A stretch of 56,736 bases of DNA, filler included, from Dimargaris cristalligena (lineage: Eukaryota): the NCBI GenBank assembly GCA_003614675.1. It is 4 parts of 4 records of this genome, joined end to end, with 100 filler letters (N's around TTAATTAATTAA, not from the genome) between each part and the next. Parts side by side here need not be neighbours in the genome. Positions count along the whole stretch, not along the records: positions 28,434 to 42,540 come from ML002965.1; 3 more parts are not named here. One strand, written 5' to 3'. Numbering within the stretch: position 1 is the first letter of the stretch; every line of letters begins with the position of its first letter. Under the pieces are notes generated by a model. That model searched no databases and was not told the DNA's origin. It was given only the letters and a program-made list of their open reading frames with translations. Made by a program: the position numbers and the translations under genes. Shown here piece by piece: positions 14,118 to 51,970 of this stretch.

Positions 14118-14217
14118 NNNNNNNNNNNNNNNNNNNNNNNNNNNNNNNNNNNNNNNNNNNNTTAATTAATTAANNNNNNNNNNNNNNNNNNNNNNNNNNN
14201 NNNNNNNNNNNNNNNNN
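14118..14217. other. Artificial contig spacer
   Basis: 44 N + TTAATTAATTAA (stops in all six frames) + 44 N. Confidence 0.99.
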
Positions 14218-21903: not shown

Positions 21904-22056
21904 AAGAGCACTTAGGCACTCCTCCCTAGACACTTATTATCAACCCCGACATATCATACGTCTTTCTACTGCTTGCCTCCCCTCCCTAATCCCGCCTCAC
22001 TTCAATTCCACCAACCCCTTCTAAACTCCCTCACCCCAATATTTACATCCACCACA

Positions 22057-26549: not shown

Positions 26550-28333
26550 CTAGTAGTCGACTTGACCAGTAGTTATTGGCAGGGAGCAACAGGGGGGAGA
26601 TGATACTGAATATAAGGATATTCCTAGGTGGAGGGTACTAATGGACTGAGAGTAATTTGACTAGTATTTATTAGGGCCATGTAGATATATGATGAATATA
26701 ACCCTGCTGTAACCCTTATTAGTGTTTTTATACATAGGGAAGATACAGGAACATCCCCCCAAAATATAAATAGTGCAACTGTAAGGTATAGGCTGACAAC
26801 AGGAAAAATCATCAAGTCCATAGGAAAAGCACAGTACAGGAGTCCTTGGTGTGTTGGATTGGGTTGGGGGGGGGGTAGTTGGACATTATTGTAACATGTA
26901 TTGTCAAAGAAAAGCCACCACTATATAATAGGACCTCCTTTTAGCAGTCTGAGGCAAGGGTCTGATTGTAAAAGCATAGACTATCCTGTGCAAGAGCCAG
27001 TAGAGCCCATTCCATTAAATGTGTGTTAGATTACCCAGTGGGACTGAACCATTGTCATCTAAATTTATATGATGTGTCCTCAACTATCAGTATATTGCCT
27101 GATATCCATGGCCCCTTTCACTTAATCTACCTGGTGCTTCAGTCACAGATGCATTAAAATTTAGAATGTTACTCCCATTTATAGACAAAGAAATCCTTGT
27201 GGCCAATGAAGTTAAGTTAGAGATATCTAGAGGTATATGGATAATGTAAGATTATTATTTCATTAGACACTGTCTTTATTGGAGGAGAATGAGTAAATAA
27301 AGTGGAGTGCCTTGGCAAAATAAATAAAGTGGCATCAAATACAAGTTCAAGAACCACTGGGTAAAATAAATAGTGTAAACACCCAAATCAAACGTAATAG
27401 AATTTCAGTTGGGATATTTGATCAGTGAAGACTAGGCAATCTCTCCACTCCTGTGTTGTGGTCATACTGATTACCATAAGGTAATATAATCTGATAACCT
27501 TATCAGAGCTGACTGGAGCAGTCATGGTCTGGTGGAAAAACTAACTAACTAAGGAAACTATGCACTTGGCAGGGACAATTCTTATCTAATCTTCAGATAG
27601 GGACAACTGGGGCAACCAGGGATCACACAGGGATCCTTCTAGTGTACAGCAGATAAGGCATAATGAATGGGCTTGGGCTAAATGGATGACAGGGATAGAG
27701 CAAGACCAGTGGATTGAAATAACTAACTGGTAAACTATACTTAATGTAAAAACTGCCTATTTATTAGGAGAATACCCAATGGGTATTTATATAAAATAAA
27801 ATAAAGAAGTCCACCAATGTTGGCAGCTTTGAAGGTACTAAGTCTCGGGATATGCCCCAGACTTCTATAACTACAAGATCCTAGAGTTATGAATAAAAAC
27901 TATGAATATTGAATATTGAATATAGAATATGGAAAACTGGAAAAACGGCCTAGCCATCAAATGGCTTATAAATGGGTGGGGAAAGATGAAGACTGACCTT
28001 TAGTAATACTCTTTATCTTTTCTAAATTAAAAATAGTTTGGCTGGGATATACTATTAGAGATTAAGCAGGCCCAGCTACAACACCTGATAAAATTTCCAG
28101 TTCCCCAAGTTTGACCTTAGTATCAGGATCAAACCTTGAAATATCCACCAGGATACTAATTTAGGGGATTTCACTACTATCTATGAGCTGTAAATATTTG
28201 AAGAGGTGATGATCTAATCCTGCAGGTGTTATATTGTCTAGTGATAGCTAATTAACCCTGGTGTAAAGAACTGAAATTAAATCCTTGAAAACTGAACTTT
28301 ATTTGAAAAGATAGATAATAAAAGGGAAAGGTG
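26550..28333. repeat. CpG-depleted, AT-rich decayed sequence (probable transposon or pseudogene relic), family unidentified
   Basis: Very few CG dinucleotides over about 1.8 kb, stop-interrupted frames, several short hairpins and a TGAATAT tandem near 27900. Confidence 0.5.
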
Positions 28334-28433
28334 NNNNNNNNNNNNNNNNNNNNNNNNNNNNNNNNNNNNNNNNNNNNTTAATTAATTAANNNNNNNNNNN
28401 NNNNNNNNNNNNNNNNNNNNNNNNNNNNNNNNN
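28334..28433. other. Artificial contig spacer
   Basis: 44N-TTAATTAATTAA-44N. Confidence 0.99.
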
Positions 28434-29838
28434 AATTTACCATTAATATGGTCGCCTCTTCAGCATGATTTTAAATAAACCCATACCACATATCCCTGCA
28501 CTTTTACGAGCTTGTAATTTATCTATTTAACCCATGAGCCATTCGCGGATGACCTCATCAAGAGGTTTATTTATCAGTGACTTGATTTATCTACTATTCA
28601 AGGATGTTGGCCCTATTAGATACCACGTTTAGGTATATAACGGAAACATATCTAAAGATGCTGGTATAGTATTTTTATTCAAAAGGGTATTTATAGTCAT
28701 TGCTTATTCCCATTTAGCAGGGGTGTATTGTCGTCATCTTCCTGAGAATTTTGTAAATCTATGTGCATTCCTTAACTTGGGTTTGTCCTGGGCGGGATTG
28801 TGTATTGACATGAATGTGGCATTCGGCTAATGGACATTCTGGCACGAGAGGAAGATGTGGCGTCCCTTTCAGCACTATTTAATGTCGACTGGGTCAGTTC
28901 CCTATTTGCCGAAGATAGGACATTCGCCAGGGTTGACCGAGGCGATTTCAGAATTGGATATGGTAATTCTTTTGTACCGGTGGGGACGCTTAAACGGGTA
29001 ATATAGAACGTTATTAAAACTATAAAAGTTGGCTAATTGTAATAAAATGATTCCGTAGTGACTGCCAAAAATCACGAGAGCAAAGCAAAATAAAAAAAAT
29101 CACAATCAACACAAAGTTTTAAAGTATTGACGACTCATAGTGAGGTGACACATTGATATTTATTATAATAAGTTGCGATTGTACTACCTGGGCTGTGTTG
29201 CCTTCGGCCTAAAATCCAAAAAATGCGACAATGACGGTCAAGATATCTGTGCTGCAATATTCACAAATCTCAAATGCAAGAGTTCTATGGTGCTATTCCT
29301 TATCCAGAGCTGATCTTTAATGTATAAGTTTCTGAGTTCCATACATACGTAGCAATATACTAGACGAGTGTGTGTAGGGATAGGGATGCCATTTAATGGA
29401 GGATCTTTCATGCCAGACACTGGAAGTAGCAGCCACCCACAGTTAGTATAGTCCTGCACTAGTAAGCGGCGCCAAGCATATCTTAGCGGTGACTATGCCC
29501 GTTTCCGCTTGAAATATACTAGTTTTGAACTATTAGGCATCTTGTCGAATGACAATCTATATAGAATAGTGCAGATGTATTGGGGGTTTTTCTTTTGGTA
29601 TTTTATTAAATTGATAAGGAGTTTAATAAATTTTGGGATCAAAGGAAAGCGATATAGTGATGCTTCATACAAATGCCACCTTGTTCTGAAAACAAAAAAA
29701 AATCAAAGTAAAAGTAAAATAAGTAGTAAAAACGTCCCCAACCTAGTCGTGGATAATACTACGGGGTGCCATTTAGTAAAGAACTTTACCAAATATAAAA
29801 GTCAGAAGTAATTCAGTCCAACACCAAATTATAGACCC

Positions 29839-32800
29839 TTAGTTTTTGGGTTTTTTGGTCTTCCGTTTTTTGCTTGATGTAGCTTTTGACTCGCCGTTGG
29901 CTGCTGGGGTAGGTGCAGCGGTAGTGGTAGGAGTAGTAGTAGTAGTAGTGGTGGTAGCAGTAGGAGGTGTAGTAGTGGCAGTGTCGTCACTTTTACTGTC
30001 GACCGCCCCCTGTGGCTGCACGCTAAGTCCGGGAATGAACGGCGTCACCAATCGCATTTGCATCTTCTCCCGCAAGGTAGGCTCGTCATTCTTAACGGCC
30101 GGTTCCTTATTCTTGACGGTCGCATTGGCATCCCGTTTGGATCCCGCCCCTTCGCCTTCCTTGAGTCCGTTGAGTCCCTCCTGTTCCACCGTAATTCGCA
30201 CATGGACGGGGGCGAAGGTCGTGATCGTGATACCCGTTTCAGGGTTATTGAGGGTATTGGTCGAGGGATCGTACACCAAAATCTCGGTAGAAGCGGCCAC
30301 CTTCTTTTCGGCGGCGTAGACAAACCCTTCAATACCGTATTTGGGGACCAACACCGAGAAGCCGTTCTGTAGGACTCGGGTCACGTAACCGGGTTCGTAG
30401 ACCTCCTTGTTGCGGAAGAAGAGATGTGTGTACAACTCGACGGAGCTACGGGCGGCCTGTTGGGCCATCCGGTTCCGGTAGTTGAGGGTGTCCGACTGGT
30501 CCTTCATGCGACTCTTGTCCAGAATCATGGGGATATACGGGGCTTGGGGATTGATACTCGCCTCCAATAGACGATGGACCAGCACGTCCGCGTACCGCCG
30601 AATGGGGGAGGTAAAGTGGGTGTAGATGGGGGTGGCCAACCCGTAATGGTGGTAATCCTCGGGCGGCAGGGTACCGGAGCAGAAGTAGACGGCCTGCATC
30701 ATACTACGGGTAGCCATAATGCGGACCAGCTTATTGAAATACGGGTCATTGGCCTTGACCGCCTTATCCAAACTGTCCGAGAGGGTCTTGGACGAATCGG
30801 AGTTAAGTTCAAACCCATTTTCACGCAGACTCTGGCTCAGCCATTCGAAATTGGAGGGCGGGGGAGTGGGATGACGCCGGAGCATAGAGGTATCGGGGTA
30901 GGACTCGTATATCCGCTTGGCGACGGAAATATTGGCCAACAACATGAACTCTTCGACCAAAGCATTGGTGTCCTTGAGTTCTTTCATTTCCACGTCCACC
31001 GGGTCTTGGGAATCGTTTTCCAGGTTGAACCGCACTTCGGGGCTGGAGAGGGTCAGGGCACCCTGGTCCATACGGCGCTGGCGGAGTTTCTTGGCCAGTT
31101 GGTTGAGGGACCGGACGCCCAACGTGACGGGATCGTTCAAGGTCTGGTCGTCGATGCGGGCCTGGGCCTCGTCGTACGTGAAGGAGTTGCGGGACCGGAT
31201 CACCGACTTGCTGAAGGACACCTGGACAATATTGGCCTCGGGGTCCAATTCCCACACGCAGGAGAAGGCCAGGCGTTCCACGTTGCAGTGCAGGGAGCAC
31301 AGGTTAGTACCGAGCAGGGCGGGCAACATGTCAATACGGCGGTCGACAAGGTACACGGTGGTACAGCGTACCGCGGCTTCCTTGTCCATGTGCATGTCGG
31401 GTTTGACGAAATGGGTCACATCGGCAATGTGTACCCCCACTTGGTAGTTGCCGTTGGGCAGTTTGACGCAATGCAGGGCATCGTCGATATCGGTACAACC
31501 CGGGGGATCGATACTGCACACGTCCAACCCACGGTAATCGACCCGACCCTCCAAGTGGTGGTCCTGAACCACCCACGATTCGCCCTCCACGGGCAAATCG
31601 GACAATACTTGCTTGGAGAATTCCTGGTAGGGCACGTCATGCTCCATCAGCAGAACCTCGGTTTCGGTCGCCCGGTCACCGGCCGAACCCAACGCGCGCA
31701 CAAAATGTCCGAGCGGGTATTTCGAGTCCCGGGGCCAGCTGTCGATGTTAACCACGATGCGTTGCCCCAGGAGTTGGTGGGCCTGGCGAGTACGAACCTT
31801 AATCTTAGGGATGCGTTTGTCCATGGCTGCAAACATGACGCTTTGGCTCCCCGCGGCCTGGGTGTGACTCCGGACGGATCGGGATTCCAAATGACCGCAG
31901 TAGGGGCGCCAGTTACGCCGGACGATTCCCACTACTTTACCCGTGGGTTTCGCCTCGCCTACTTCCGCTGCCTCTTCGGCCTTCTTCGCTGGGGTCCCTT
32001 TAGAAGTCTGCTTGGTCTTACCAGCGGTGCCTTCCACCGGCGTGTCGTCCTCGACCTCGTCTTCGTCCTCTTCAATCAAAATCGCCGTGGGAGTGCGTTG
32101 CCATTCGGAACGGGGCAGCAGTTCTACCGCGATGACATCGCCATGGACCGCCCGGTTCATATGGCTACGGCCAATAATGACAATGGCCCGGGTTTCCCCG
32201 TCCACGGAGCCTAGAATCGAACCTTCTAGGAAATTATGTGTACTGATACCGAGCGTGCCTTGGACGTATTTGCCCGATTTAAGACCGCTCTGGACCTGCA
32301 GTTTGGTAAGGTGTTCGTCGTAACACACCCGCTGATCGCCCTTGTCGTTACCCACGCTGGCCTGGGATACCATATCGATAAGTTCGGGGTACTCCACGTA
32401 GTCTTGGAGGTAGTCCATCACGGAGGCGTTGGGAATACCGTCCGCGGTGGCTTTGCGCCGATTATCGGCGTCGTCGCTGAGCATCATGGCCTTGATTTGA
32501 CGCGGGTACCGGTTCGTCTGACTCAAATGCTGGTTGTACCACTGTACCGCCCGGCGGATGGCCCGGTCATTGCGATCGTTGGGAGTCTCCTCCTTGAGCC
32601 GTTCGATAAACGTTTCCCGGTGGTTCTCGTTGGAAAACACGTAAAAGTGACGGTCCGGATCACTGATGATATTGCGCAGCCGATGGTAGGTGGGCATGCT
32701 GAGGTTCTTCAACTCAGAGAGACAGGTCTGTAGAATGACCACGTTGGTCAGGGCGGGATGCTCAAGGATATCAATCTGATGGTAGAGCACATTGGTGTCG

Positions 32801-33033
32801 GGAACGACCAGGGTGGGCACGGGGAACGATTCGGTCTGGCGGGGCGTGCTGGATAACACGGGGTGGGGTACGGTGAATTTGCTATCCCCCTGGGCTTCCT
32901 GCAATGTAGCCCAGTCACAATTGGGGCACTTTTCCACTGAGCAGACAATGTCGTCGCGTAAGTAATGTTCAGTCACCACACGGACAACGTTGCCCTTGCG
33001 GGTCTTTTTCATGTACGACTTGGAGCGCAACAT
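29839..33033 (-). CDS. DIS3: Exosome catalytic subunit Dis3/Rrp44 (CR3, PIN, CSD, RNB, S1), intronless
   Basis: EHYLRDDIVC..C..C, PIN motifs VPDTN and NDRNDRAIR, RNB motifs SIDPPGCTDIDDALH and YTHFTSPIRRYAD, basic C-terminal NLS-like tail. Confidence 0.97.
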   Translation of the reverse strand: MLRSKSYMKKTRKGNVVRVVTEHYLRDDIVCSVEKCPNCDWATLQEAQGDSKFTVPHPVLSSTPRQTESFPVPTLVVPDTNVLYHQIDILEHPALTNVVILQTCLSELKNLSMPTYHRLRNIISDPDRHFYVFSNENHRETFIERLKEETPNDRNDRAIRRAVQWYNQHLSQTNRYPRQIKAMMLSDDADNRRKATADGIPNASVMDYLQDYVEYPELIDMVSQASVGNDKGDQRVCYDEHLTKLQVQSGLKSGKYVQGTLGISTHNFLEGSILGSVDGETRAIVIIGRSHMNRAVHGDVIAVELLPRSEWQRTPTAILIEEDEDEVEDDTPVEGTAGKTKQTSKGTPAKKAEEAAEVGEAKPTGKVVGIVRRNWRPYCGHLESRSVRSHTQAAGSQSVMFAAMDKRIPKIKVRTRQAHQLLGQRIVVNIDSWPRDSKYPLGHFVRALGSAGDRATETEVLLMEHDVPYQEFSKQVLSDLPVEGESWVVQDHHLEGRVDYRGLDVCSIDPPGCTDIDDALHCVKLPNGNYQVGVHIADVTHFVKPDMHMDKEAAVRCTTVYLVDRRIDMLPALLGTNLCSLHCNVERLAFSCVWELDPEANIVQVSFSKSVIRSRNSFTYDEAQARIDDQTLNDPVTLGVRSLNQLAKKLRQRRMDQGALTLSSPEVRFNLENDSQDPVDVEMKELKDTNALVEEFMLLANISVAKRIYESYPDTSMLRRHPTPPPSNFEWLSQSLRENGFELNSDSSKTLSDSLDKAVKANDPYFNKLVRIMATRSMMQAVYFCSGTLPPEDYHHYGLATPIYTHFTSPIRRYADVLVHRLLEASINPQAPYIPMILDKSRMKDQSDTLNYRNRMAQQAARSSVELYTHLFFRNKEVYEPGYVTRVLQNGFSVLVPKYGIEGFVYAAEKKVAASTEILVYDPSTNTLNNPETGITITTFAPVHVRITVEQEGLNGLKEGEGAGSKRDANATVKNKEPAVKNDEPTLREKMQMRLVTPFIPGLSVQPQGAVDSKSDDTATTTPPTATTTTTTTTPTTTAAPTPAANGESKATSSKKRKTKKPKN

Positions 33034-33502
33034 GTTGGACTGATGTAGGGAATCCGCAAACGAGCTGGCGGGTGGGCAAAATTAGTACAGAGAATATGGT
33101 GGCAAATAGTGTGAAGCTGCACTAGATAAACAACCGGATACCTCACGTAGTAAGATTCCTAGGATAGGGAAATAGGTATAAGAAATGTAGGTAAAACTAA
33201 GGCCCAATGCTGAATGTAAATAACGGCAATGCATGCATTACAACTAGCAGTTGAATAAGCGCAATCTCCCGAGACTATTTTAGTAACAACCGATGTCCTT
33301 TTTTTTCGCCCGTTCATTAGTGCGACTTTCAATGATTGATTTTCTACCTATATTTTTTTTCGACTTGACTCTCAAGACGTATTCTCTTGGCCATCTATAG
33401 GAGGGCCATAGCATAAGCTCCATTCATTCAACTTATAATAGGGATGCGATAACGGATCACGTGATGGATATACTTCCAGCCGAGTAATAGAAGCACAGAC
33501 AG

Positions 33503-33646
33503 ATATGGGTGAAATTCAAACCAGCTGTATAGGGTTTTACATAGTACATGTATGGGTGAATATGTGGGAGAATAGCTTTTAACCAGCAATATTGGCCTCA
33601 TCCAATGGATTTTTCGTTATACAGCCTGAATGAACTTCTCCCATAT
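33503..33646 (+). mobile_element. MITE family A, copy 4
   Basis: ATATGGGTGAAATTCAAACCAGCTGTATA ... CCTCATCCAATGGATTTTTCGTTATACAGCCTGAATGAACTTCTCCCATAT. 144 bp. Confidence 0.85.
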
Positions 33647-34267
33647 ATCATCCATCATCCAAAGGGCAACAGTTGGGTCAACCTATAACAAGTTCGCATT
33701 ATCTTAAACCAATCTACCTGATTCAGGAGATTACCCAAAGAATAGTGAATTTTCCTGTCCATGAGACACTAACCCGGTTGCTGGGCCTCTTGTGCTTTCG
33801 GCACTTGAAAGCCCTGGGTCTCCAGTTTAGGTGCTACTGCCCTATTGGCCCACCGGCCATTGCCCAGATATTAATCGATTATTTTTATTACACAGATAGG
33901 TGGGGGTTGATGGTCAATTTAAGACGGATTCAAACGAGCGCCAAGGGCTATATTATAAGCATGGTCCAGGCGAACCATGGTGGGTGGGATAGATGGTAAG
34001 GATATTGGTCGGGGTAAAAATTACTACGTAAGTGACCCCCATTCGTTACCAATGGAACTCAGAGATTGCCTATTAAAGACCCGCGGAAATTGATGCTATA
34101 AAACAAATGGATTATGGGGGGGGGGTCTTGAAAAATACTAAAAAAAATAAAAAGGAATTGAGTGGACAAATTTGATGGCTATAAAAAATAAAGGTCGCTA
34201 TAATGTGAGGTTAATTGGGGAAAGATGCTCCGAATGGTTTCAATCCAAGGAAGAACTCATCCGCGAA

Positions 34268-35658
34268 TTAGCTTAGCCGTTCCCGTTTACGGGTGTTTCC
34301 TCCCATTACCCGGGTTCGCTTACCCGGTAACCGGCTACTCAAAGGCGACGCCGGCAACGGCCGTTTCCGGTCATTCATAACCGCCACTTTAGTTACCGTA
34401 CCCTGGCGTGCCGTCAACAACAGCTGGTCGATCCGTTGCTTGAGGGTACTCTGATCACTAATCCGACGATTATTCGGCACCGCCAAGTCCGTCTGATTAA
34501 AAATGGCCGGTCGGACCTGGGTGAGGGGCGCGATGGTACGGGCTATTTTAGTGGATCGGTAGGGGGTACATAGGTTAGAATGGTTCTCCTGACCCGTAAA
34601 GACCCCGATTTTGGCCCGAACTGAACCAGGTGTCACATTGTTGGAAGTAACTGGACCCCCCATCTTCATTAACTGGTGACCCGAAATCCCAACAGCCTGG
34701 TAGGCTTCAAGATCACGTTCCAAGTGACTAATGCGGAGGCGAAAGGAATCCCGCTGCTTTTCGAGGGCCTGGAGATCCCGTTTAAGGTGCGAATTCTCTT
34801 CCTTGAGGTGAGTAATATGTTTGATCTTCTGTTTGAGAGACGGGTGGCCAGTATTTAGGGTGGACTGGGTACCCTGGGTTAGGTAAAGCTCATCGTAGAT
34901 GGGTCGGTGGTTCTTCTGCAGGAATTGGTTTTGGCTCTCCAGCTGGTGGATGGCCTGCTCGTGACCGGTTTCCGCGTCTAGTAGTTGTGAACGAAGCCTG
35001 GGTATCCCGGTGAAAAAAAATGACAGCATGGGCGTGTAGCATAAATAAACAAAGAGTGGGTATCATATATATCATTGATGAGTATCTTGTAATACCAGAT
35101 AAAAAATAGATGTAGCCTGATCTCAAAAAGGGATAATCGAAGATTGATTACCTCAGGCTTTACGGCGATCCAATAATTTCTTAAGATACCCCTATTCTTC
35201 AATAAAAAATACCGGAACTTACGTTTCAACCACCACCGAAAGGGTTTCGAATTGGTGCTTATAGTCCTCCGTCGCATCATTCACTTTCCGTTTCTCGCGC
35301 TGCAGGGACATGTACTCCTCGTTGGCTTTAGTTCGCACCTCTTTTAATTCCTGCTCGTACTGCAAGACGTGCTGTTCCAGCTGGTAAATCCGGTTATGGA
35401 ACCGTTTGGCCTCGGGGGGAGCGAGCGTCCCGGCTTTTTTGTCCTGCAGCTGACGCTGCAAATCAGTTATAAGGGTCTCCTTTTCGCCCAGCGTCTGCTC
35501 CAACTTTTGTAAATGGGCGTGTTGTTCGGCCAGGGCCTTTTCATCGGCCAGTCGCCGCTTGTCGTCCAGCTGGGCCTGCTGCGCGGCCTTATTGGATACT
35601 TGGGTAAGTTCGTGAGTCGTATCGGCCAGTCGCGTCTGCAACTCTGCCGGAATTAAGA
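34268..35658 (-). CDS. 3' half of an HMMR/RHAMM-like coiled-coil protein (exons about 35658-35223 and 34997-34268); no start of its own
   Basis: Coiled coil, then an in-phase GT-AG intron at 35222-34998 (AC|gtaagt...cag|G). Contains GHPSLKQKIKHITHLKEENSHLK, matching the HMMR C-terminal basic-zipper motif (GHQNxKQKIKHVVKLKDEN). Confidence 0.8.
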
Positions 35659-35675
35659 CCTGCTCACCCAACAGG

Positions 35676-38600
35676 ATGGTAAGCTCCGTTTTCTGTGACC
35701 CCAACAGCCCCCCACATGCCGCATCTTGCCCCAAACCCACACCTACCGGTACTCAAAGCCCTATCTTTATCACCCTTCTGCCCTTTCCCCAAAAATAGTC
35801 TTCCCAGTCCGCCTCCGCCCAACCCCTCGATGAAGGGCTTTACTCCCGCCAGCTGTAAGCTCCCAGTCCCCTATATATATACCCCATGCCAATCTACTCT
35901 CGTGACCGAGCCACCGTTACCTTTGCATTTCACTTTCGAGACAGACTACTGGCTCTTCATTAACCCCATTCCGTACTTTCCTAACCTCCGGCGCCGGGTT
36001 TTTATTGATGTACTCTTCGCTTCGCGAACCCCGTCCATGTGCATTAGCTATGTGCTGGGCCGGGAGGCTATGCAAAAAATGAGCGAGTCCAACGTCTTGA
36101 TTGTGGGCCTGAAGGGCCTCGGTGTGGAAACGGCCAAGAACGTCGTCCTGGCCGGTGTCAAGAGCGTATCTCTCTACGACCCTGAACCCACCGCCATTGC
36201 TGATCTGTCTAACCAATTTTTCCTCACCGAGGCCGATGTCGGCAAGCCCCGTGCCGTTGCCACCGCCCCCCGCTTAGCGGAACTTAACCAATACGTGCCC
36301 GTTCATGTTTTGACCGAGGAGCTGACCCCCGAGGTCATTAGCCGCTTCAAGGTAAGTGCTTGCTTGTCACTTCTCTGGTGGATTCCAATTTCGTGGAGTA
36401 CGGCGTTGCTGGTTGAGGTGAATCGAAGGTCCCTCCACTGGCCTATTACTGATCCAACTCTGCTGTGTTCTTTTACCATACTCTGATTAGGTGGTGGTTG
36501 TCACCGAAACCTCCCTCAGCAAACAGCTGGAAATCAACAAGATTACCCACACCGGTGGACAGTGCTTCATTGCTGCCGATATCCGCGGCTTATTCGGGTA
36601 AGTCAGTGTTAACATGGCTTCCCAGCATTTTTCCACCTACTCATATACATGTGTATACTTATTAAAGGTCTTCCCTGGCCCCAGGTGGCTTTATCGCTTG
36701 ATCTAATCCGACTATGTGACTGCTAATGTATACTGCATTTTCCCTATTCTTATCGTGTTTTTCATTCAGCCACATTTTCTGCGACTTCGGCCCTGGGTTC
36801 GTTGTCACTGACACTAATGGCGAGGAGCCCATTAGTGGCATGGTGGCCGCCATCTCCAAGGTAACGTCTACTCCAGATTATACGCGTTGAACCAATTCAC
36901 TACAATGCCCCCCCTACATTCCTACCTTGCCTCCTGGTCAGCTAATTCACCCATACTTAACTATTGTTGACCAGGCCATGCATTAACAACCCTTTGGCAT
37001 TATTATCGCTTAAAATTGCCGCATCGCCAAACATTATAATCCATAGGAAAAGGAAGCCGTCGTGACTTGCCTTGACGAAACTCGCCACGGCCTGGAAGAC
37101 GGTGACTTTGTGACGTTTTCCGAAATCAAAGGCATGTCCGAACTCAACGGCGCTGAGCCCCGCCCCATCAAAGTCATTGGTCCCTACACCTTCAGCATCG
37201 GCGACACTAGTGGTTTCTCCGATTATGTCCGAGGTGGTATTTTCCAGCAGGTCAAGATGCCCAAGATTTACAACTTCGTAAGCACCTACACCGACCCAAC
37301 TACCCTTCACTTATCTAACCCATTTTATTCGGCTATGTCCACTCCCCACTACCTCAGTCTCATATCGACCTATTTTAACTGCCACCTTAATCCTTCCCGC
37401 CCCGTGTAGAAATCCTTGGAAGAATCTCTCAAAGTCCCTGAATTGGTGACTTCCGACTTTGCCAAGTTTGACCGGCCGCAGCAACTCCACCTTGGTTTTC
37501 AGGGACTCGATGCCTTTGTGCAAGCTAACAATGGCAAGCTACCCCGGCCTCACAACAAGACTGATGCCGACGCTGTTCTGGCCAAAACCCAGGAGATCAA
37601 CCGGGCCGGTGATAATATTGAACTCTCTGACGACCTGATCCGCCAACTCGCCTACGGGGCCATCGGACAGCTAGCCCCCATGTCCGCCTTCTTCGGCGGT
37701 ATCGTTGGCCAGGAAGTGCTCAAAGCCTGTAGTGGTAAATTCGGACCCATTATGCAGGACTTTTACTTTGATTCCCTCGAGTCCCTGCCCGAGACTGAAC
37801 TGACCGAGGCCGATTGCCAGCCCCTGAACTCCCGCTATGATGGACAAATCGCTGTCTTTGGCCGCGCGTTCCAGGAGAAGATCGCCAACAACCGCCAGTT
37901 CCTTGTGGGCGCGGGTGCTATCGGCTGCGAAATGCTCAAAAATTGGGCCATGATGGGCTTGGGCACCGGCGAACAGGGCGAGGTCCACGTCACCGATATG
38001 GACACCATCGAAAAGAGTAACCTGAACCGCCAGTTCCTGTTCCGCCCCAGCGATGTGGGACAACTGAAGTCGGATACCGCCATCAAGGCCGTCGCGGCCA
38101 TGAACCCGGCCACTGTGGGTAAAATTATTGCCCACCAGGACCGGGTGGGGCCGGAGACGGAAAACGTTTATAACGATACCTTCTTTGAGGCTCTGGACGG
38201 CGTCACCAACGCCCTGGACAACGTGGAGGCCCGCAAGTACATGGACCGGCGCTGCGTCTACTATCGCAAGCCCCTTTTGGAGTCCGGCACCCTTGGCACC
38301 AAGGGTAACACCCAGGTGGTTCTGCCGTTCCTGACGGAATCATACTCCTCGTCGCAGGACCCCCCCGAAAAGACCATTCCCGTATGCACTCTACACAATT
38401 TCCCCAACGCGATTGCCCATACTATCCAATGGGCCCGGGACCGTTTCGAAGGGCTCTTTAAGCAGGCCCCTGAGAACGTTAACCTCTACCTGACTCAACC
38501 GGGTTTCTTGGACAGCCTGGCCAAGCAGAACGCCAACCAGAAGGATGTGTTGCAAAGCCTGGTGGAACTCCTGGTTGAGGAAAAGCCACAGTACTTCGAA

Positions 38601-39659
38601 CAGTGTGTGCAGTGGGCCCGGCTTAAGTTTGAGAAATACTTTAGCAACGACATTAAGCAGCTGCTCTTCAATTTCCCGCCCGACTCCCAGACTTCGTCGG
38701 GCCAGATGTTCTGGTCCGGACCCAAACGGGCGCCTACTCCCATCCAGTTCGACTCTCAGAACCCCCTGCACCTGGACTTCATCGTCGCGGCGGCCAACCT
38801 GTTCGCCGCTGTGTATGGCCTGAAGGCCGAGACTGACCGGGAGGTGGTTCGGTCGTTGGCGGATAAATGCACCGTGCCCGAATTCCAGCCCAAGCAGGGC
38901 GTGCGCATCCAGGTCCAGGAGAATGAACCGGTGGGCGGGGACAGTTCCGCCGACGGCAATAGCGAGCAGACGGATATCCGTAACATGACCTCAAGCTTAC
39001 CGGCGCCCTCGACGATGCCCGGCTACCGCGTCCACCCGGCGGAGTTCGAAAAGGACGACGACACCAACTTCCACATTGATTTCATCACGGCCACGTCCAA
39101 CCTGCGCGCCACCAACTACAGCATCGCCCCGGCCGACCGCCTCAAGACTAAGTTCATCGCGGGTAAGATCATCCCCGCCATCGCCACCACTACGGCGTTG
39201 GTAACCGGTCTGGTGTGCCTGGAGTTGCTCAAGATCATTGGGGGCCACAGTAAACTGGAGGACTACAAGAATGGATTCATCAATCTAGCCCTACCCTTCT
39301 TTGGGTTTTCGGAACCGATCCCCATGCCCACCATGGAATACCACGACGTGACCTTTAGCCTGTGGGACCGGTTCGACGTCCAGGGGGATATCACCCTGCA
39401 GGAATTCCTGGATTATTTCCAGCGTGAACATGGACTGGAAATCACCATGTTGTCCTCGGGAGTGACCATGCTTTACTCGTTCTTTATGGCCAAGAAGAAG
39501 CTGGAGGAGCGTCGACCCATGAAAATGTCCCAGTTGGTCGAGGCGGTGTCCAAGAAACCCATCCCCCCGCACGTGAAATCGATTGTCCTGGAAATGTGTG
39601 TCAATGACCGTGACGGCGAAGATGTTGAAGTGCCCTATGTGCGTTTGACCATTCGTTAG
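35676..39659 (+). CDS. UBA1: Ubiquitin-activating enzyme E1, 7 exons, 1013 aa
   Basis: Exons 35676-35678 (ATG only), 35799-35854 ([10 protein letters not shown]), 36048-36351, 36491-36597, 36770-36860, 37047-37277, 37410-39659. All introns are GT-AG and in phase (3042 nt in total). Motifs [18 protein letters not shown] and catalytic [10 protein letters not shown]. Confidence 0.95.
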
Positions 39660-40783
39660 AAGTATCTGAACCTTCCACCCTTCTCCCATTTTTCGTTTTC
39701 CCTTTTTATTATGCTACTCCACTTCGTCCGCCGTCGAAGTGCTGTTGGGGTTTGTTTACTGATATTACACCAAGTATCTTACATGCGAGTTCCTTGCTGA
39801 CCGTACACTCCCCCTATGAATTCGTCATATTTCAGTATTCCTTAACCTTATTTTATCGAATTCGCAAACCCTATTAAACTTTCGTGTGGCTTGACTATGG
39901 TAATTAGCGAAACAGGAAATGCCATAGATTTAGGGAAACAATAGGCCGATTTCGATGGATTACTCACAGTGCCCTTTTATATTGGGATCATCCCGACTGC
40001 TGGTAATCAACTTCGTACCCTTTGACTAGCCCTCTAACCTTCCATTAGTCCTATATATACCTCCCAGATAATCCCACGATGGTCCCTCCTTTGGCTTGCA
40101 CCAGTTTGAAGGATTGGTAGGCAACACAGCACACTGAGAGTCAAAGGTAAACAAAGATGGAACCTATCACGTCGCAAGATACTAGGAAAGTAAGCGAGAC
40201 CACCTGTTCGGGGCCAGAAGGAAGGCGAGTAATATTTTAAATTAAGGTTAAAGGGAGGAAGGGGGCATTGTGCTGGGGTTGGTCTATCAAGCGGTAAAAC
40301 GCTCAAACGGGCTTGGAATACAGGGGAAAGGGCAGTTGAACGGAACGTGCAAATAGCGGGTAAACGACCGCAACTGCCCCTTAACCATACTCGTTGCCTA
40401 ATATCAGTTTTACGTTCCGTTGCGTTCAACTGCGTTTTTTTTATATTATATATTAAAATGGTGTAGATTTCCTTTGTGTACTCTTCCATATTTCCCTCCT
40501 GCTTTCCATTTGTAGTTGCCACGACTTACATTGTCTCTTATTTTTAACAGGGACCCATACCCTACGCTCCTTTAACCCAGTCTAGTCCAGTCCAGACCTA
40601 ACAGCCGCTGAATTGCTGGAGACCTGTTGCCTCCTAATCGCTCAGCCCAGCCCGTGTATTAGCCCAAGCCCAAGCCTCCGACATCCATTGGACCACGAAA
40701 GGGCCAACCAGCTGATATATCGGAGTTTCAAATAACGGCAGCTTCCTTTTCTTATAGATTACCGAAACACAGCCCCATACTCG

Positions 40784-42540
40784 ATGAGCCGTAGACGCGA
40801 TCTATTTCATTACGGTAAGTTCGGCGCGCCCTAAATGCCTCGCTCGTACATTTCACTCTACTCTGACACCCCATTCAAAATCGATTTCAATCGGGTATCC
40901 AGCGGGCTAGCATGGTGCGCATACAGGCTCTTGTAGCGAAGCAACCTAATTAAAGGGAGCTTTTCCAATTCAACGTTAGGTCGGTACTAATTAGTATCCA
41001 ATACTTATTTCCTAATTGTTACATGGTTATCTACCCCACGGACTACTTAACACAGACAAAGATATCCCTGGCCCCGGTACCTACAATCCCATTTCGCCGC
41101 AGAATCGGTACCGTCGCTACGGATTTATATCGCAATCGGACCGGTTCACCAAACCCAAACCCCCGGGACCTGGGGGACTGAGTACGCCGGCCATGGTCAC
41201 ACGTAACACCCCCCATGGCGAGCGACTCCTCCGCCGTAAGCGGGTGGGCCTCCCCTCTAACCAGATACCTTCGGCCGAGGTCCGCGTTCAACACGCTGAG
41301 GCGGAATTGGCTAAACTCCAGCGGGCCAATACGACCCTCCAAGCCCAAATAAGCCAAGCCCAGCAGTTTCAAGGGACTTCCCAGGCGGATTTGCAGGCCA
41401 CTATGGCTCAGTATAAACGGCTGCAGCACCAGCACCAAACGGAAACCTCGCGACTCCAAGACGAAATCCGTAATTCCCGCAACGAACTTCAGCTGCGCCG
41501 GTTTTTAAACCAGGAAACGGAGACCAACTTACTGTATCGGCAAAAGAGCCTCCAAAACCAAGTTAGCCAGCTTGAAAAGCAGCTCTACCAACACCAAAGG
41601 GCGGCTGCCCACCAAACCACCGAACTGCGGCAGGATGCCGAGGAATTCCGGGATACCATTAACCAGCTGAACCGCCAATTGGTTCAGCGCAACCAGGACT
41701 TGATTCAGGCCAACGCGCTGAAGGACCAAATCCGGGCCGAGGGGCAGCAGGAGGCCATGTCCCTCCAGAGTAAAATCCGAGGCTTGGAGGGGCAGTTGGT
41801 GGCCCTGCGCCAAACGGGGGTGCAGCACCAAGCCGAAATCGCCGACCTAAAAGACCAGCTACGGCGGCAAGATCACCGCCATGTCGACGCGGACCAGCGC
41901 CACGCGGAAACGGTCCAAACCCTCGAGGAGCACCTCGGCGAGGCGCGGGAAGAGGCGGCAGCCATCCTAGGCCGCCATGCGGAGCTCGAAGGCCAAGTAG
42001 AGTATCTGACGGCTCAAATCATCGACTTGGAGCGCGAGTACGAAGAGAGTGCAGTATCTCACCGGACCGAACTGAAACAGACCCAACGCCAGGCCACGGA
42101 GTTCCGCGAGGCGCTCGAACGGGCTTTAGCTGAAAACAGCCAGATTGCCGACGAACTCAAAACGGTGCAGCAGACCGCAGAGACGCAAGAACACCAGGCT
42201 ATTGAAACCCAGCGGCACCTCCAGAGTCGAACCAAGGCCCTGGAAGCCCTGTTAGGTGAAGCGACCGGCCGCACCACCCGGCTCCGGGACCAATTACAAA
42301 GTTTGGAGGGTCAGCACGCCCAACTCACCGAACGGACCCACGCCCGGGAGGCCGCCCTGCAACAGGACGTGGTAAAAGCTCAGGAACGGCTCGAAACGGT
42401 GCGCCAGCAACTCGAGCAGGACTACACCGCCCAGGTGGAACGCCTGGTGTCCCAGCACGACGATGTAGTCCGGACCCTCCGCCACCAAATGGACCAGCAG
42501 CATAAAACCAGCCAAGTGCTGGCTGAGCAGCGGTCGGAGG
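40784..42540 (+). CDS. 5' half of the HMMR/RHAMM-like coiled-coil protein (exons 40784-40814 and 41056-42540), running off the contig end
   Basis: The spliced start reads MSRRRDLFHY-D-KDIPGPGTYNP...YGFISQSDRF, with the PGPGxY motif of HMMR N-termini. Intron 40815-41055 is GT-AG and in phase. A long coiled coil follows with no stop before the spacer. Confidence 0.8.
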
Positions 42541-42640
42541 NNNNNNNNNNNNNNNNNNNNNNNNNNNNNNNNNNNNNNNNNNNNTTAATTAATTAANNNN
42601 NNNNNNNNNNNNNNNNNNNNNNNNNNNNNNNNNNNNNNNN
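42541..42640. other. Artificial contig spacer
   Basis: 44N-TTAATTAATTAA-44N. Confidence 0.99.
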
Positions 42641-46447: not shown

Positions 46448-49400
46448 CTAATTTTCCGGGCCATACATGCGATTCTCGGCTGCTAGGCGAGCCAGGCTAG
46501 AGTTACTATTATTGGCGCTGCTATTAGCGCTACCGCCTCCACTTCCACTTCCATTCGCACTTCCACCACTACCGGTGTTGTTTGATTGATAGTGGACCAG
46601 GCCCGCTCCCAAATTGGCCGATATAGCCGATGGGTCCACCGACAGAGATGATGATCTATTCCGGGGTACCACCCGGTCGGAGTGGGGGGTAAATGTTGTC
46701 GAGTCAACCGATTTCTTTCGGAGACTGGGTCCGGATGATCGGGGCGGCAAGGACGACGACAAAGATATCGATGCCGACGCCGACGACGCAGTGGCCTGGG
46801 GCGGTGCCGCTGAGGTCAACGATGAACTCGATAATTGTAAGGCCGGCGGCGGGGGTTTGCCGTTTAAGGAAGCATTAGAGGGTGACCGCCTGGCGGATGG
46901 TCCCAGTGGTGATGGAGGGTATGCCAACATGGCCGAGGCCAGGGTCGAATTGGTGGATATTCCGCTGCGTTTGGCTCGCATACTGGATGAGCTACGATTC
47001 CGGTTGCCTGTGGTTCCGGCTGTGGAACTACCACTAGCTTGGGCGTCTCGAGAATCGGCGGTGGTGGTGGTAGTGGCTGGGGAGGCCTCACCGTCTTCAC
47101 TACCATCACTTTCCTTAATCTTCTGGAGCATTTCGAGGGCCTTGGTACCCAGCGAGGTTCGCCGTAAGGACCGGCGCAGTTCACTGCGTCGCCGGGACAT
47201 GAGGTCCCGCTTTTTACGGCGGGACAATGTATCGAAATCGTTGCCCGTGATGAGGGACTGCAGTAGGTTGTCCATGACCCCCTTCTCAGTGCCCGACTCA
47301 CCGCCCGCCCCATCGCCCGGACGACCACCACTGCTACCCATTTGCTGCTGCTGCTGCTGCTGTTGAAGCTGCAAAAGTCGGCGCTCCTTTTCCTTCTGCT
47401 GCTCCTTGCGTTTTGAATCGCGCTCCAAAATCCGCTGTCGCCGCTTTTCGTTAACCGCTTTACGTTCCTTCTCTGCTTCATTATCCTTGAGGGCCTTTTC
47501 AAACGAACTCGAGAACGTACGGAAAATACCAAAGAACTCTTCGGGGGGCATCCGCTTGGAGTCTTCACCGTATAGATCGGCTACCTCACTGTAGCGACTC
47601 TGCATGTCGGTGTACATTTGCTCGATACCCTGGAAGCGGTCTTTGGCAATATCGTGGAAGCTTGTCATGACGAGGAGGAAGCGATCTTCGTTGCCCGCAA
47701 TGGACGCCTCTGCCGTCTCGGTCGAAGCTGAGGCCAACGTAGAGGTGGAGGAGGAGCCTGGACTGGTACCATCGTCACCTGACGCCAGTTTGTTTTCCTG
47801 GGCCTCAGTAAGCTTACGCTTGAACACATCTAATTCCGTACCCAATTCCGCGAGTTGTCCCTTCATATCATTAACGTCTTTTTTTAGTTCATTAGACGAA
47901 ACGCGGCAGGCATCTTCGATGCCCTTGAACTCCTGGAGGAACTGCAAACTATCCGGTAAGGTACCCTGCAGGACTTCGGCGAGGAAGTGCAATAAGGTCG
48001 TTTTGTTATCGGAGGCCTTGGTATCCACCAATTTATTCAGCGAGTTGATCTTGAAACCAAACGCACCTCCTCGGAAACCGGAACCGTTCATGAAATTACC
48101 CATCATGAGGATAGTTTCTAGCACTTGAGGGAAGTGTTCACTGTTGGGCAGCGCCTCGCAGGCCCGCAGAAGACCGGCCACGTCCTGGCGCAGGTAACCG
48201 AATTTCTCTTCGAACGTAGTCCAGAATAGGAGCATCTTAAGACGTTGCTCGTACCGGTCCACCTTCATCATTTCGGCGAAGAAGGCGTCCGCATTGGCCA
48301 GACTTTCGGTGTCATCCTTATAGGCCGACAGAAGCCCCCGCTCGGAGGCGGTCGGAATGTAGGTGAGAAGTTGGTTCAGCAAGTTTTCGGTTAGGATTTG
48401 GTTGTCGCAGCGAAGCACGGCACGTCGGAGATCCGCGAAGGAATATTGCTTCAAGCGACCCAACATAAGGTTGATGTTATGGGCACGTTTGGGATCCAGC
48501 ACCGAAATGGTCTCCTTGACCAGGGGCTCGTCGTCGTTGCCAACAGCGGCACCACCAGGACTGGCACTGTTGCCGTCCTTCCCGGGCCGCCGGGCCCCTA
48601 CGGTGCGCTTACTGAGATCAATGGCAGCCGCCTTGGCGCTGAACATGGATTCCATCTGGGTCAAGACACCCTTATCGAACATAATCTCTTCCAGCTTATC
48701 GGAGGTGAGGATCTCACCGGCCTCATTACGGCCCCACACACTGGAGCTGACTTTGAATTCGTCCAGTTTATCCCACTGCAACTGCTTCAGCTTGACTTTG
48801 GGTACGAATCGGATCTCCTTGCGACGGGCTACGCTGAGGCCACCAGAGGAAGGGGGCGGCGGCGGAGGGGAACCAAACATGGAGCTGGGTGAACTGGCAC
48901 CCGACATATTCGCCCGCTCGGCTAACCGGGCCGCAAGGCTGTGCGGAGTACTGGCCGCCGACGAACCTGGTGGTGGTGGCGGTGGAGGGGGAGGTGGGGG
49001 CGGTGAGAAGCCCATCATACCTGGTGGTGGAGGAGGGGGGGGTGGTGGAGGCGGTGAAATACCCCCCATACCCGGCGCTGGTGGTGCTGGCGGCGGCGGT
49101 GGTGGAGGAGGTGGGGGTGGAGGAGGCGGTGGGGATAATCCACTCATATTAACTAGACCCAAAGAGCCGGGTACTGGACTGAAATTCGCCGGCGGCGGCG
49201 GCGGAGGTGGTGGTGGTGGGGGCGGTGGTGGTGGAGGCGGGGCAGCCATGGGTAGGGATGTGGAAGCTACCGATGAGGGTCGGGAGCCCATACTGGGTCG
49301 TCGCAGAGATCCCGACTTGGAGGCGCCATCGTCGGAAGCACCGGAGTTATCAATCAGTCGGTTCTGGCGGGCCAATTCATCACCGGCCTCCTCGAACAGC

Positions 49401-51970
49401 ATCTCCAATTTGGCCTTGGCGGCGGCCATCTTATTGCGCGAGGAGATGGTATGGGATGCGTTGATGATATCGTCCACGGAACCAAGGGGTCCCAAACGAC
49501 CGGCTCCGGTGGTTCCTGGGGCAGAGAATTCGAATCCCGTACCCGCCCGAGAAGCTCCGGCGAACAAATTGGATTGCCGGGAAATAGACTGGCGGATTAT
49601 GGAGTGCCGGGGTTGGAGGGTGATGGGAGCTGACGCGCCCAGTCGCTGCATTTCGCGGTGCAGTTTCTGGGGATTGACCACCAGACGCCGAACCGGAGGG
49701 GCACTGGGCTCAGCGACGGGTTCTTCGACTATATCCATGACTTCACCGGTGCGCAGGGCCTGGTTTTCGATTTCCAGGTGGGCGTGGGACTCGTGTAACT
49801 CGGTTTGCTCTTCGGTTTGGTTCTCCAGGGTCTTGACCATTTGCTTTAACTGGGTGTCCTGGGTCATGAGTTTACCCTGGAACTGCTCCCGCAGTTCCTT
49901 GATTTGGTTCTGCAGGGCCATGATGGTGTGCCGGGACATGCGCAAAAGGTCTTCCAGGGTCATAATCTTGGCCTTCAGGGCCTGCACCAACCCATCGGCC
50001 TTCATGGATACCTCGAGCTCGAGCTCGTTCTTGCCCCGACGCACCTGCTCCAACTGTTCCTTTGTTTCCCGTAGTTCACTCAGGGCCTCGACCAGCTGCT
50101 CTTCGTCGGCGAATTTGGCCGTGAGCGTGGCCACGGAAACACCGAACGCGGATGAGAAATCCGAGTCCACTCCCCGGCGATCCAGCACCACCTGTGAGAT
50201 CAGATGATCGATCAGCTGCATATACCGGCCTTTGGTTTCAGCGTCCTCCCGGATGAGCAGCAGGTGCTGCAGGATCGAAATGAAGGACTCCGTCGACCGA
50301 CCCTCGAGGGAGGAAAGTAGGGCTTCGAATACTTCGTGGGGATCACTCATATCCTGGAGGGCCTGGAAATGGTGGAATTCCATCACTTCATTATTATCGT
50401 GCTCGGCCTCCCGCTCGTACTTGTCGATTTGGTGCTGGATATGCTCGTGGTTAAACTCGAGTAATTTCTCTTGAATCCGGTGAATGCCACACTTGGCCAA
50501 CTCTTGGCGTAAATGAACCCGGACTTCGACTTCGTCGCAGACTTCGATGATGGCGTTCATGAGGAGCACGTTGCACAGTCCATAGTGAACCAGGTCGTTC
50601 TCCAACATACCGGCCTGACGGATTTCCTGACTGGCCCCCACCATGGATCCCATCCGGCCCCGGCCATCGACGGTGCGCTCTAGGGTATTTAACCAGGGTT
50701 CAAACCGGTACTCCATCGAGCGGAACCGCTGGAAGGCCTCCATACCCTGGAGAACCATGGCATGACCCCGGGGGATTTCAGAGTAACACAGGAAAGTAAG
50801 TAACTCTGCGGCTAGTTTACGGATGAGGAGATGGGGGGAGTCCAGGGAGTGGCAAATGTTGGCTACGCATCGGGGGTAGTTGAGCACCTCGTTGGCACCC
50901 CAGCTCAGATTTAGCACGGTTTTCAGGGCGCGCATGATTTCCAATTCCTGGTCCAGGTCCTGTTCCCGGCGCTGGGGCCGGTGATTGAGTTTGCCCAGGC
51001 ACTCGGCCAACATGACCAACCCCTTCTCGTCGATAAACTCGCGGATCCAGGAGATGGGGTGGGTCATGATGGAGACCCGCAGGCCGGTGAAAATTTGAAC
51101 CGGGACGTAGCGCAGATCTACGCCCGAGATTTTGTCAATAAAGTAAGTGGGGTTGGCCTGACTTTGAACGCTGTCCGATTCCTTCTTGGTCTGCTGCTGC
51201 TTAGCGCGGAGCATGGTCCGTTTAGAGTCCACCGGAATGGACCGCATATAGTTACGTTTCGATTCGGGGATACCCATGGAGTCAATCAACTCCTCGAACA
51301 TGCTGTGGACTTCGTTATCGCTGGCCAGATCGATGGCCTGGGTCAGGTAGCTGGGGACAGACCGCGGCAGGGACATGCTGCCGCTCCCCCGGACGGACGA
51401 CACCCGGTCACTGAGGCTGGGAACGTCGCTGTATGCGGTGTAAGTGGAGTTGGTGGACATAAGGGACAGCTGGTCGGTGGACTGGCGGGGGTGGTGGGTA
51501 GTGGACGACGGTCCCGGGACGGGGGCCGGGGTGGAGGGAGTGGGCGGAACCGAGTGGGTGCTTTGGGCGTACGATGGGGAAACGGCGTTGCTGCCCTGGG
51601 TACTGACGGTCGAGGTGGAATTAGTCTTGGAGGTGCGACGCACGTTGTTTAGGCCCGAGAGGTTGTATTGGGAACTGGACCCCTGGGCGTAGGAAGTGGA
51701 AGCAGACGATGAGCGATCGGGCAAGCCGGCGGTGGGGTTACTGGGGGTGGTGGGGGGCTGGGACCAAGATGCGGTGGAATTCAGGGGCGGCGGGGGCTTA
51801 CTGGTGGTGGGTGACGTGAAGCGCTCGGGGGCGTCCGGGGGAGGACTAATGGACGAGGTGGGGTAGATGTAGGTGGATTCAGCGACTCCGACGGGGCCCG
51901 ATATGGTGAAGGGGGGTGGCGAAGATGGACCCTTGGACCGCTTTTTCCTATTCGTTTTGAATAGGTCCAT
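46448..51970 (-). CDS. Diaphanous-related formin (Bni1/SepA-like: GBD/FH3, coiled coil, FH1, FH2, DAD), 1840 aa, intronless
   Basis: GBD/FH3 (WIREFID..G, RFEPWL..LE..VDGRGRMGSMVGAS), polyproline FH1, FH2 (KLKQLQWDK, GNFMNG..GGAFGFKINSLNKLVDTK, PEEFFGIF), DAD (GVMDNLLQSL followed by RRKKR). Confidence 0.96.
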   Translation of the reverse strand: MDLFKTNRKKRSKGPSSPPPFTISGPVGVAESTYIYPTSSISPPPDAPERFTSPTTSKPPPPLNSTASWSQPPTTPSNPTAGLPDRSSSASTSYAQGSSSQYNLSGLNNVRRTSKTNSTSTVSTQGSNAVSPSYAQSTHSVPPTPSTPAPVPGPSSTTHHPRQSTDQLSLMSTNSTYTAYSDVPSLSDRVSSVRGSGSMSLPRSVPSYLTQAIDLASDNEVHSMFEELIDSMGIPESKRNYMRSIPVDSKRTMLRAKQQQTKKESDSVQSQANPTYFIDKISGVDLRYVPVQIFTGLRVSIMTHPISWIREFIDEKGLVMLAECLGKLNHRPQRREQDLDQELEIMRALKTVLNLSWGANEVLNYPRCVANICHSLDSPHLLIRKLAAELLTFLCYSEIPRGHAMVLQGMEAFQRFRSMEYRFEPWLNTLERTVDGRGRMGSMVGASQEIRQAGMLENDLVHYGLCNVLLMNAIIEVCDEVEVRVHLRQELAKCGIHRIQEKLLEFNHEHIQHQIDKYEREAEHDNNEVMEFHHFQALQDMSDPHEVFEALLSSLEGRSTESFISILQHLLLIREDAETKGRYMQLIDHLISQVVLDRRGVDSDFSSAFGVSVATLTAKFADEEQLVEALSELRETKEQLEQVRRGKNELELEVSMKADGLVQALKAKIMTLEDLLRMSRHTIMALQNQIKELREQFQGKLMTQDTQLKQMVKTLENQTEEQTELHESHAHLEIENQALRTGEVMDIVEEPVAEPSAPPVRRLVVNPQKLHREMQRLGASAPITLQPRHSIIRQSISRQSNLFAGASRAGTGFEFSAPGTTGAGRLGPLGSVDDIINASHTISSRNKMAAAKAKLEMLFEEAGDELARQNRLIDNSGASDDGASKSGSLRRPSMGSRPSSVASTSLPMAAPPPPPPPPPPPPPPPPPANFSPVPGSLGLVNMSGLSPPPPPPPPPPPPPPPAPPAPGMGGISPPPPPPPPPPPGMMGFSPPPPPPPPPPPPGSSAASTPHSLAARLAERANMSGASSPSSMFGSPPPPPPSSGGLSVARRKEIRFVPKVKLKQLQWDKLDEFKVSSSVWGRNEAGEILTSDKLEEIMFDKGVLTQMESMFSAKAAAIDLSKRTVGARRPGKDGNSASPGGAAVGNDDEPLVKETISVLDPKRAHNINLMLGRLKQYSFADLRRAVLRCDNQILTENLLNQLLTYIPTASERGLLSAYKDDTESLANADAFFAEMMKVDRYEQRLKMLLFWTTFEEKFGYLRQDVAGLLRACEALPNSEHFPQVLETILMMGNFMNGSGFRGGAFGFKINSLNKLVDTKASDNKTTLLHFLAEVLQGTLPDSLQFLQEFKGIEDACRVSSNELKKDVNDMKGQLAELGTELDVFKRKLTEAQENKLASGDDGTSPGSSSTSTLASASTETAEASIAGNEDRFLLVMTSFHDIAKDRFQGIEQMYTDMQSRYSEVADLYGEDSKRMPPEEFFGIFRTFSSSFEKALKDNEAEKERKAVNEKRRQRILERDSKRKEQQKEKERRLLQLQQQQQQQQMGSSGGRPGDGAGGESGTEKGVMDNLLQSLITGNDFDTLSRRKKRDLMSRRRSELRRSLRRTSLGTKALEMLQKIKESDGSEDGEASPATTTTTADSRDAQASGSSTAGTTGNRNRSSSSMRAKRSGISTNSTLASAMLAYPPSPLGPSARRSPSNASLNGKPPPPALQLSSSSLTSAAPPQATASSASASISLSSSLPPRSSGPSLRKKSVDSTTFTPHSDRVVPRNRSSSLSVDPSAISANLGAGLVHYQSNNTGSGGSANGSGSGGGSANSSANNSNSSLARLAAENRMYGPEN

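Follow-up and report, generated by a model that had tools for sequence, protein, structure and literature searches.

Results

The window analysed here is a 56,736-base stretch of the Dimargaris cristalligena genome (assembly GCA_003614675.1), made up of four contigs of 14117, 14116, 14107 and 14096 nt, which are separated by spacers at 14118-14217, 28334-28433 and 42541-42640, each consisting of 44 N, TTAATTAATTAA and another 44 N, and across which no feature is to be read. As the contig sizes descend as in a size-sorted assembly, position 42540 is a real contig end. The third contig (ML002965.1) carries UBA1 between two oppositely oriented pieces of a gene for an HMMR-like coiled-coil protein, with a Dis3/Rrp44-like exoribonuclease gene next to the 3' piece (Table 1). 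A preliminary description of the locus had read this arrangement as one gene split by an inversion that contains UBA1, with an intact frame of 893 aa restored upon flipping of the segment.

The two pieces read as described, the 5' half on the plus strand up to the contig end (exons 40784-40814 and 41056-42540) and the 3' half on the minus strand from about 35659 in an open frame which lacks an in-frame ATG upstream of exon 3. Both halves possess open frames and canonical splice sites. The exon lengths, 31 + 1485 + 436 + 730, sum to 2682 nt, and upon translation the joined pieces yield the 893 codons and the single terminal stop counted previously. The tblastn homology of exon 3 to the orthologue P0004, which is introduced below, reaches 35644. 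Tandem repeats were not found near the break. As a separate observation, CAG/GTC at 35660-35662 on the minus strand, just upstream of the 3' half, resembles a splice acceptor, and CTTAC, the reverse complement of the UBA1 donor, lies about 20 nt before this CAG. The acceptor-like appearance could be a coincidence or could represent the last bases of a native intron; that the site is a native acceptor explaining the missing exon is improbable, as the junction would need to fall within the last 16 nt or fewer of the intron.

With the last exon as the query a 1,083-aa protein of Tieghemiomyces parasiticus (P0001) was retrieved, to which the N-terminal half (pairwise BLASTP, E 5e-61), exon 3 (E 1e-23) and the last exon (E 1e-37) align at successive positions, the N-terminal half being collinear to at most 3 residues from the contig end. 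When 1.84 billion cluster representatives were scanned by HMMER with the N-terminal half as the query, four proteins in total were obtained, namely P0001, P0002, P0003 (982 aa, Dispira simplex) and P0004 (981 aa). The two halves of the window are complementary and non-overlapping on every orthologue, and all three full-length orthologues (P0001, P0003 and P0004; Dimargaritales; 981-1083 aa) carry both halves in order within one protein; therefore the two inverted pieces are one split gene, which, at the level of protein comparison, is confirmed. The split-gene proposal is thereby borne out, and the N-terminal scan revealed no second copy from the organism that would assign each half to a gene of its own. 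A profile search with the three orthologues recovered only P0003 and a chytrid protein, P0005, its word filter having missed P0001 and P0004, and no closer relative.

The fourth protein of the scan, P0002, is a public gene model of 419 aa which starts with MSRRRDLFHYDKD and is identical to the window over its first 409 residues. Its last 10 residues are obtained via a GTTAGG...CAG 'intron' leading to a stop at 42469-42471 (within 42251-42471). This end is an invented splice, a gene-caller artefact caused by the truncated contig.

A four-way alignment of the window, with an X at the break, and the three orthologues, a comparison of proteins which are only 31-50% identical, was used to address whether flipping restores the gene. 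Of the 185 columns at which the three orthologues agree, the window shares the residue in 132, differs in 32 and is gapped in 21 (132/164 identical where a residue is present). Sixteen of the 21 gapped columns fall into one run of 62-73 orthologue residues located exactly at the join; up to the C-terminal tail, the window shows no other gap of at least 5 residues relative to all three orthologues. The lost stretch contains A(N/D)xDRxAQLEALxIARxKIQ, which ranks fifth in conservation among the 25-column blocks of the family; 10 of the 12 most conserved blocks are present in the window. The anchors VRTLRHQMDQ and IYQLEQH lie 114 aa apart in the window, but 178 aa apart in P0003, 178 aa in P0004 and 202 aa in P0001. 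Since the N-terminal half is collinear to the contig end and the homology of the 3' half extends to 35644, the deficit lies at the break and is not spread around it. The missing central block was not found elsewhere in the window by tblastn with the middle segments of the orthologues, the best match (E 0.34) being the collinear contig end itself. Neither was a short protein with this block recovered with residues 455-575 of P0003 as the query in a set of 5.8 billion proteins, as none of 187 candidates reached E <= 0.1.

Judged from this alignment, the 893-aa frame would lack about 64 native residues at the join and would not be the native protein, for which we infer a length of about 960 aa. 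An estimated 190-200 nt of coding sequence, about 64-67 codons, appears to be absent between 42540 and the native partner of 35659. The expectation that flipping restores the gene is thus not upheld, as a stretch of 62-73 residues present in all three orthologues is absent, and the anchor spacings are at odds with a contig that ends exactly where it would re-enter its own left arm. The in-frame join, which had been taken as support, carries no weight: between 35219 and 35752 the minus strand has an open frame into which every third join position fits.

UBA1 between the halves encodes a ThiF fold, a four-helix bundle, the SCCH domain and the C-terminal ubiquitin-fold domain of an E1 enzyme, all above the Pfam cut-offs. 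As the exon which begins the first adenylation domain aligns with solved Uba1 chains from residues 13-24, only about 20 upstream residues and no further upstream coding exon are expected, and these residues are supplied from the start-codon exon on. Intron 2 opens with the same donor, GTAAGCTCC, as intron 1. The gene is complete, yet no more than 16 nt of its native 5' flank is present, in accordance with the distance of about 16 nt between the ATG (35676) and the break noted before. UBA1 is essential in eukaryotes.

The arms of the inverted repeat which had been proposed to flank the segment, 35660-35670 and 42520-42530, are present and match at 10 of 11 positions in inverted orientation, while their value as evidence is weak. 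Contig 3 contains 363 inverted pairs of at least 11 nt, one of which is this pair. Among 600 random pairs of 46-nt windows, 6 (about 1%) contain a 10/11 match; of 606 windows tiled against the junction 5 do so, and within exon 2 the number is 9 of 144 overlapping windows, representing three distinct sites. The placement of the repeat is mildly unusual, but its motif of Leu-x-Glu-Gln codons recurs in the gene. The shared AGG exists but lends no significant support. For the direct join the overlap is only 3 nt (AGG/CCT); the true partner sequences, the missing approximately 200 nt and the upstream flank of UBA1, lie outside the window. No 12- or 14-mer, direct or inverted, links the junction or the end of the contig with any of the four contigs; therefore no k-mer overlap survives at the contig end. 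The longest inverted repeat of contig 3 (37037-37069 and 40729-40761; 33 nt, 82% complementary), with one arm falling within UBA1 and the second lying 23 nt before the ATG of the coiled-coil gene, is probably due to chance.

The name HMMR-like is fair but borderline, judging from the profile scores. For HMMR_C (PF15908) the last exon scores 27.5 bits, with E 4.3e-6, slightly short of the gathering threshold of 28.6, and HMMR_N (PF15905) was not detected in Pfam scans of the 494-aa N-terminal half and of P0002, which returned no family at all. One of the three Dimargaritales orthologues, P0004, passes the HMMR_C cut-off with 30.2 bits, P0001 and P0003 giving no match, and the chytrid relative P0005 scores 34.6 bits for HMMR_C, above the cut-off, and 26.4 bits for HMMR_N, below the cut-off of 30.1. 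In common with HMMR/RHAMM, coiled-coil proteins of the spindle and centrosome, the window protein has a short conserved PGPGxY motif in its N-terminal part, a long coiled coil in the centre and a C-terminal KQKIKHITHLKEEN...HLERDLEAYQ that matches HMMR_C; the sub-threshold HMMR_C score and the undetected HMMR_N set it apart from them.

Further features of the window are listed at the end of Table 1. The Dis3 open reading frame (ORF) contains PIN_4, Rrp44_CSD1, OB_Dis3, RNB (E 1.2e-104) and Rrp44_S1, with a GTA-rich tandem repeat within its 3' end (29921-29978), and a run of ten G (34117-34126) lies between Dis3 and the 3' end of the coiled-coil gene. An AT-rich region (27000-30000; GC 0.34-0.38) comprises the last part of contig 2 and the first part of contig 3, and no ORF matching Pfam was found in it. 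The remaining genes of contigs 1, 2 and 4 match most or all of each Pfam model, and similar breaks are not evident there.

Table 1. Features of the window, those of the interrupted locus first; positions count along the whole window
Feature	Position	Strand	Basis
Contig 3, unit holding the putative misjoin	28434..42540		N-spacer map
Coiled-coil gene, exon 1, 31 nt, ATG... followed by GTAAGT	40784-40814	+	Sequence
Coiled-coil gene, intron, 241 nt, ends ACACAG	40815..41055	+	Splice-site sequence
Coiled-coil gene, exon 2, 1,485 nt, open frame to contig end	41056-42540	+	Match to P0001 13-505
Coiled-coil gene, exon 3 (436 nt), 5' side cut by junction	35223..35659 (start 35658/9)	-	Match to P0001 610-741
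Coiled-coil gene, intron, 225 nt (GTAAGT...CCCAG)	34998..35222	-	Splice-site sequence; exon phases fit orthologue alignment
Coiled-coil gene, last exon, 730 nt including stop	34268..34997	-	Match to P0001 743-983; Pfam HMMR_C
Interval bound to hold the inverted junction, from the last homology-supported coiled-coil codons to the UBA1 ATG	35645..35675		tblastn homology, Uba1 alignment, by eye
Imperfect inverted repeat, left arm, 11 nt	35660..35670		Judged weak
Imperfect inverted repeat, right arm, 11 nt	42520..42530		Judged weak
UBA1 start codon, exon of ATG alone, then GTAAGCTCC (begins GTAAGC)	35676-35678	+	Sequence
UBA1 intron 1, 120 nt, ends AATAG	35679..35798	+	Splice-site sequence
UBA1 exon 2, encodes 19 residues	35799..35855	+	Translation
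UBA1 exon, start of first adenylation domain	36049..36354	+	Aligns with solved Uba1 chains, E 2.5e-42
UBA1 large 3' exon, 749 codons and stop	37410..39659	+	Pfam E1_4HB, ThiF, UBA_E1_SCCH (E 3.3e-100), E1_UFD
Dis3/Rrp44-like exoribonuclease gene, complete; adjoins the 3' end of the coiled-coil gene downstream	29842..33081	-	Pfam domains
SAGA-Tad1	370-2625	-	Pfam
Ubiquilin-like protein	3257-4474	+	Pfam
SPRY protein	15122-18259	-	Pfam
dUTPase	21916-22680	+	Pfam
DAHP synthase	23625-24881	+	Pfam
Formin with GBD/FH3/FH2	46451-52030	-	Pfam
Aquaporin	53747-54754	+	Pfam

Discussion

The arrangement of contig 3 is most likely an artefact of assembly or amplification, the contig being quite probably a chimera of neighbouring genome segments that were joined in the wrong relative orientation. 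The native order, on one strand, would be UBA1, the HMMR-like coiled-coil gene and Dis3. One part of the contig, 28434-35659, which holds Dis3 and the coiled-coil gene from its middle onwards, would have been attached reverse-complemented at most 16 nt upstream of the UBA1 ATG, while the other part, 35660-42540, would comprise UBA1 and, up to the contig end, the 5' half of the coiled-coil gene. The join would most likely represent an inverted template-switch chimera of whole-genome amplification or an equivalent chimeric read path followed by the assembler. An artefactual inversion chimera, as suggested in the preliminary description, thus remains the likeliest cause.

Chimeras of this kind are well documented for multiple displacement amplification (MDA). 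In single-cell MDA data, 406 of 475 chimeras were inverted, with join points less than 10 kb apart in 337 of those, and 93.5% of these close inverted chimeras had at least 2 bp of junction complementarity (PMC1855051). A review gives overlaps of 5-8 nt as typical and reverse-complementary pairs with overlaps of about 5-13 nt as known hotspots of inverted MDA chimeras (PMC9984789). The criterion used here for this class was a short complementary junction overlap of 2-21 nt. Like the chimeras described in the two papers (PMC1855051, PMC9984789), contig 3 joins nearby segments in opposite orientation, the joined points 35660 and 42540 being 6,881 nt apart, plus the gap of about 200 nt, hence about 7 kb and below 10 kb; its junction is without a biological signature, and the contig would fold back on itself. 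It differs from them in stopping about 200 nt before the fold-back point and in being known from the assembled sequence alone.

For this shortfall of about 190-200 nt, a post-assembly trimming of contig ends by 200 bp is a candidate reason, the untrimmed contig having possibly stopped upon re-entering its own left arm at the fold-back point. In one pipeline, SPAdes single-cell contigs were trimmed by 200 bp at their ends (PMC7507113), which resembles the deficit of about 64-67 codons, or about 192-201 nt, at the break. As 42540 and 35659 are both first codon positions, the missing length has to equal 2 modulo 3. A 200-nt gap would keep the frame, add 67 codons and bring the anchor spacing to 181 versus 178 in the two closest orthologues. 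If the assembly was end-trimmed, the earlier fold-back idea would be rescued in modified form. A chimeric misjoin predicts that 42540 would extend through about 190-200 nt, with a DRxAQLEALxIARxKIQ-like block, into GTCTTAATTCC, and that a contig carrying the native 5' flank of UBA1 should overlap CTGCTCACCCAACAGGATGG.

Several points weigh against a misjoin with a trimmed end. A k-mer overlap retained by the assembler, combined with a 200-bp trim, predicts a shorter gap of about 36-54 codons versus the approximately 64 estimated, and the size of the missing piece rests on only the three orthologues at 31-50% identity. The presence of the same truncated model, P0002, in the public set shows only the same break in the deposited assembly. 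The 10/11 repeat stands beside both break points, a placement met in about 1% of random pairs, and has to be treated as a coincidence or as recurrence of a codon motif. Finally, a lineage-specific deletion which coincides with the break is possible, but much less likely than missing sequence.

Such a deletion is what the explanation originally given for the contig end entails, namely a chimera whose contig ends exactly at re-entry, so that the 893-aa ORF, or one of 890 aa via the 11-nt repeat, would be native and the central block truly lost. The open frame of 893 codons with one terminal stop, the 3-nt AGG overlap and the rarity of an inverted repeat beside both points (6/600 random pairs), a pair of the kind listed as a hotspot of inverted MDA chimeras (about 5-13 nt; PMC9984789), speak for an exact join. 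It is nevertheless unlikely, as the approximately 64-residue deletion, including the fifth most conserved block, would have to coincide exactly with the break in a protein that, up to its C-terminal tail, shows no other gap of at least 5 residues relative to all three orthologues, and as the in-frame property is automatic and the repeat motif occurs at three sites of exon 2. Moreover, a chimera at the 11-nt repeat itself fails to give the junction of the contig unless its last 10 nt are foreign.

Quite unlikely is also a real inversion of about 7 kb, comprising UBA1 together with the coiled-coil gene's 5' half, either fixed, polymorphic or heterokaryotic, with about 200 bp lost at a breakpoint. 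Small breakpoint deletions are common in inversions that arise by end joining, the assembly does show this arrangement, and a short inverted repeat is found near both points. On the other hand, the inversion would knock out the coiled-coil gene and leave the essential UBA1 without its promoter, while both gene halves are undecayed; moreover, if the inversion were fixed, it would not explain why the contig stops no more than about 200 nt from the second breakpoint. Long inverted repeats are absent, and recombinase or transposase domains were not found in the 11 pieces of contig 3 scanned with Pfam, smaller ORFs not having been scanned. That a 7-kb inversion, polymorphic or heterokaryotic, switches the locus between an intact HMMR-like spindle gene with a normally promoted UBA1 and the disruption of both is very unlikely; in that case the contig would end near the second breakpoint as a result of both orientations coexisting in the sequenced material. 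Site-specific invertible switches of the Hin, Gin and Fim type are comparable in that the orientation of a segment decides whether a gene is intact. In contrast to those, the window has no substantial inverted repeats (best 10/11 nt) and no recombinase gene in the pieces scanned, the host is a eukaryote, and one orientation would disable an essential gene. A real inversion, if true, would be an unusual structural polymorphism affecting an essential gene, which the evidence makes unlikely. That the halves derive from two separate loci, different paralogues or pseudogene fragments with their other halves elsewhere, is extremely improbable: although neither half is complete on contig 3, their matches complement each other exactly, without overlap, on every orthologue (P0001 13-505 versus 610-983), and the exhaustive N-terminal scan with its four matches in all contained no second copy from the organism.

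The probable chimeric misjoin is mainly of quality-control value. Mending a suspected misjoin by an in-frame join can be convincing and yet wrong, as comparison with the orthologues exposed the approximately 64 missing residues here. The misjoin has already given rise to the truncated public model P0002, the last 10 residues of which are invented; as a further consequence, no start is left for the 3' half of the coiled-coil gene and no 5' flank for UBA1. Gene counts, synteny and presence/absence calls for the lineage would inherit the error.

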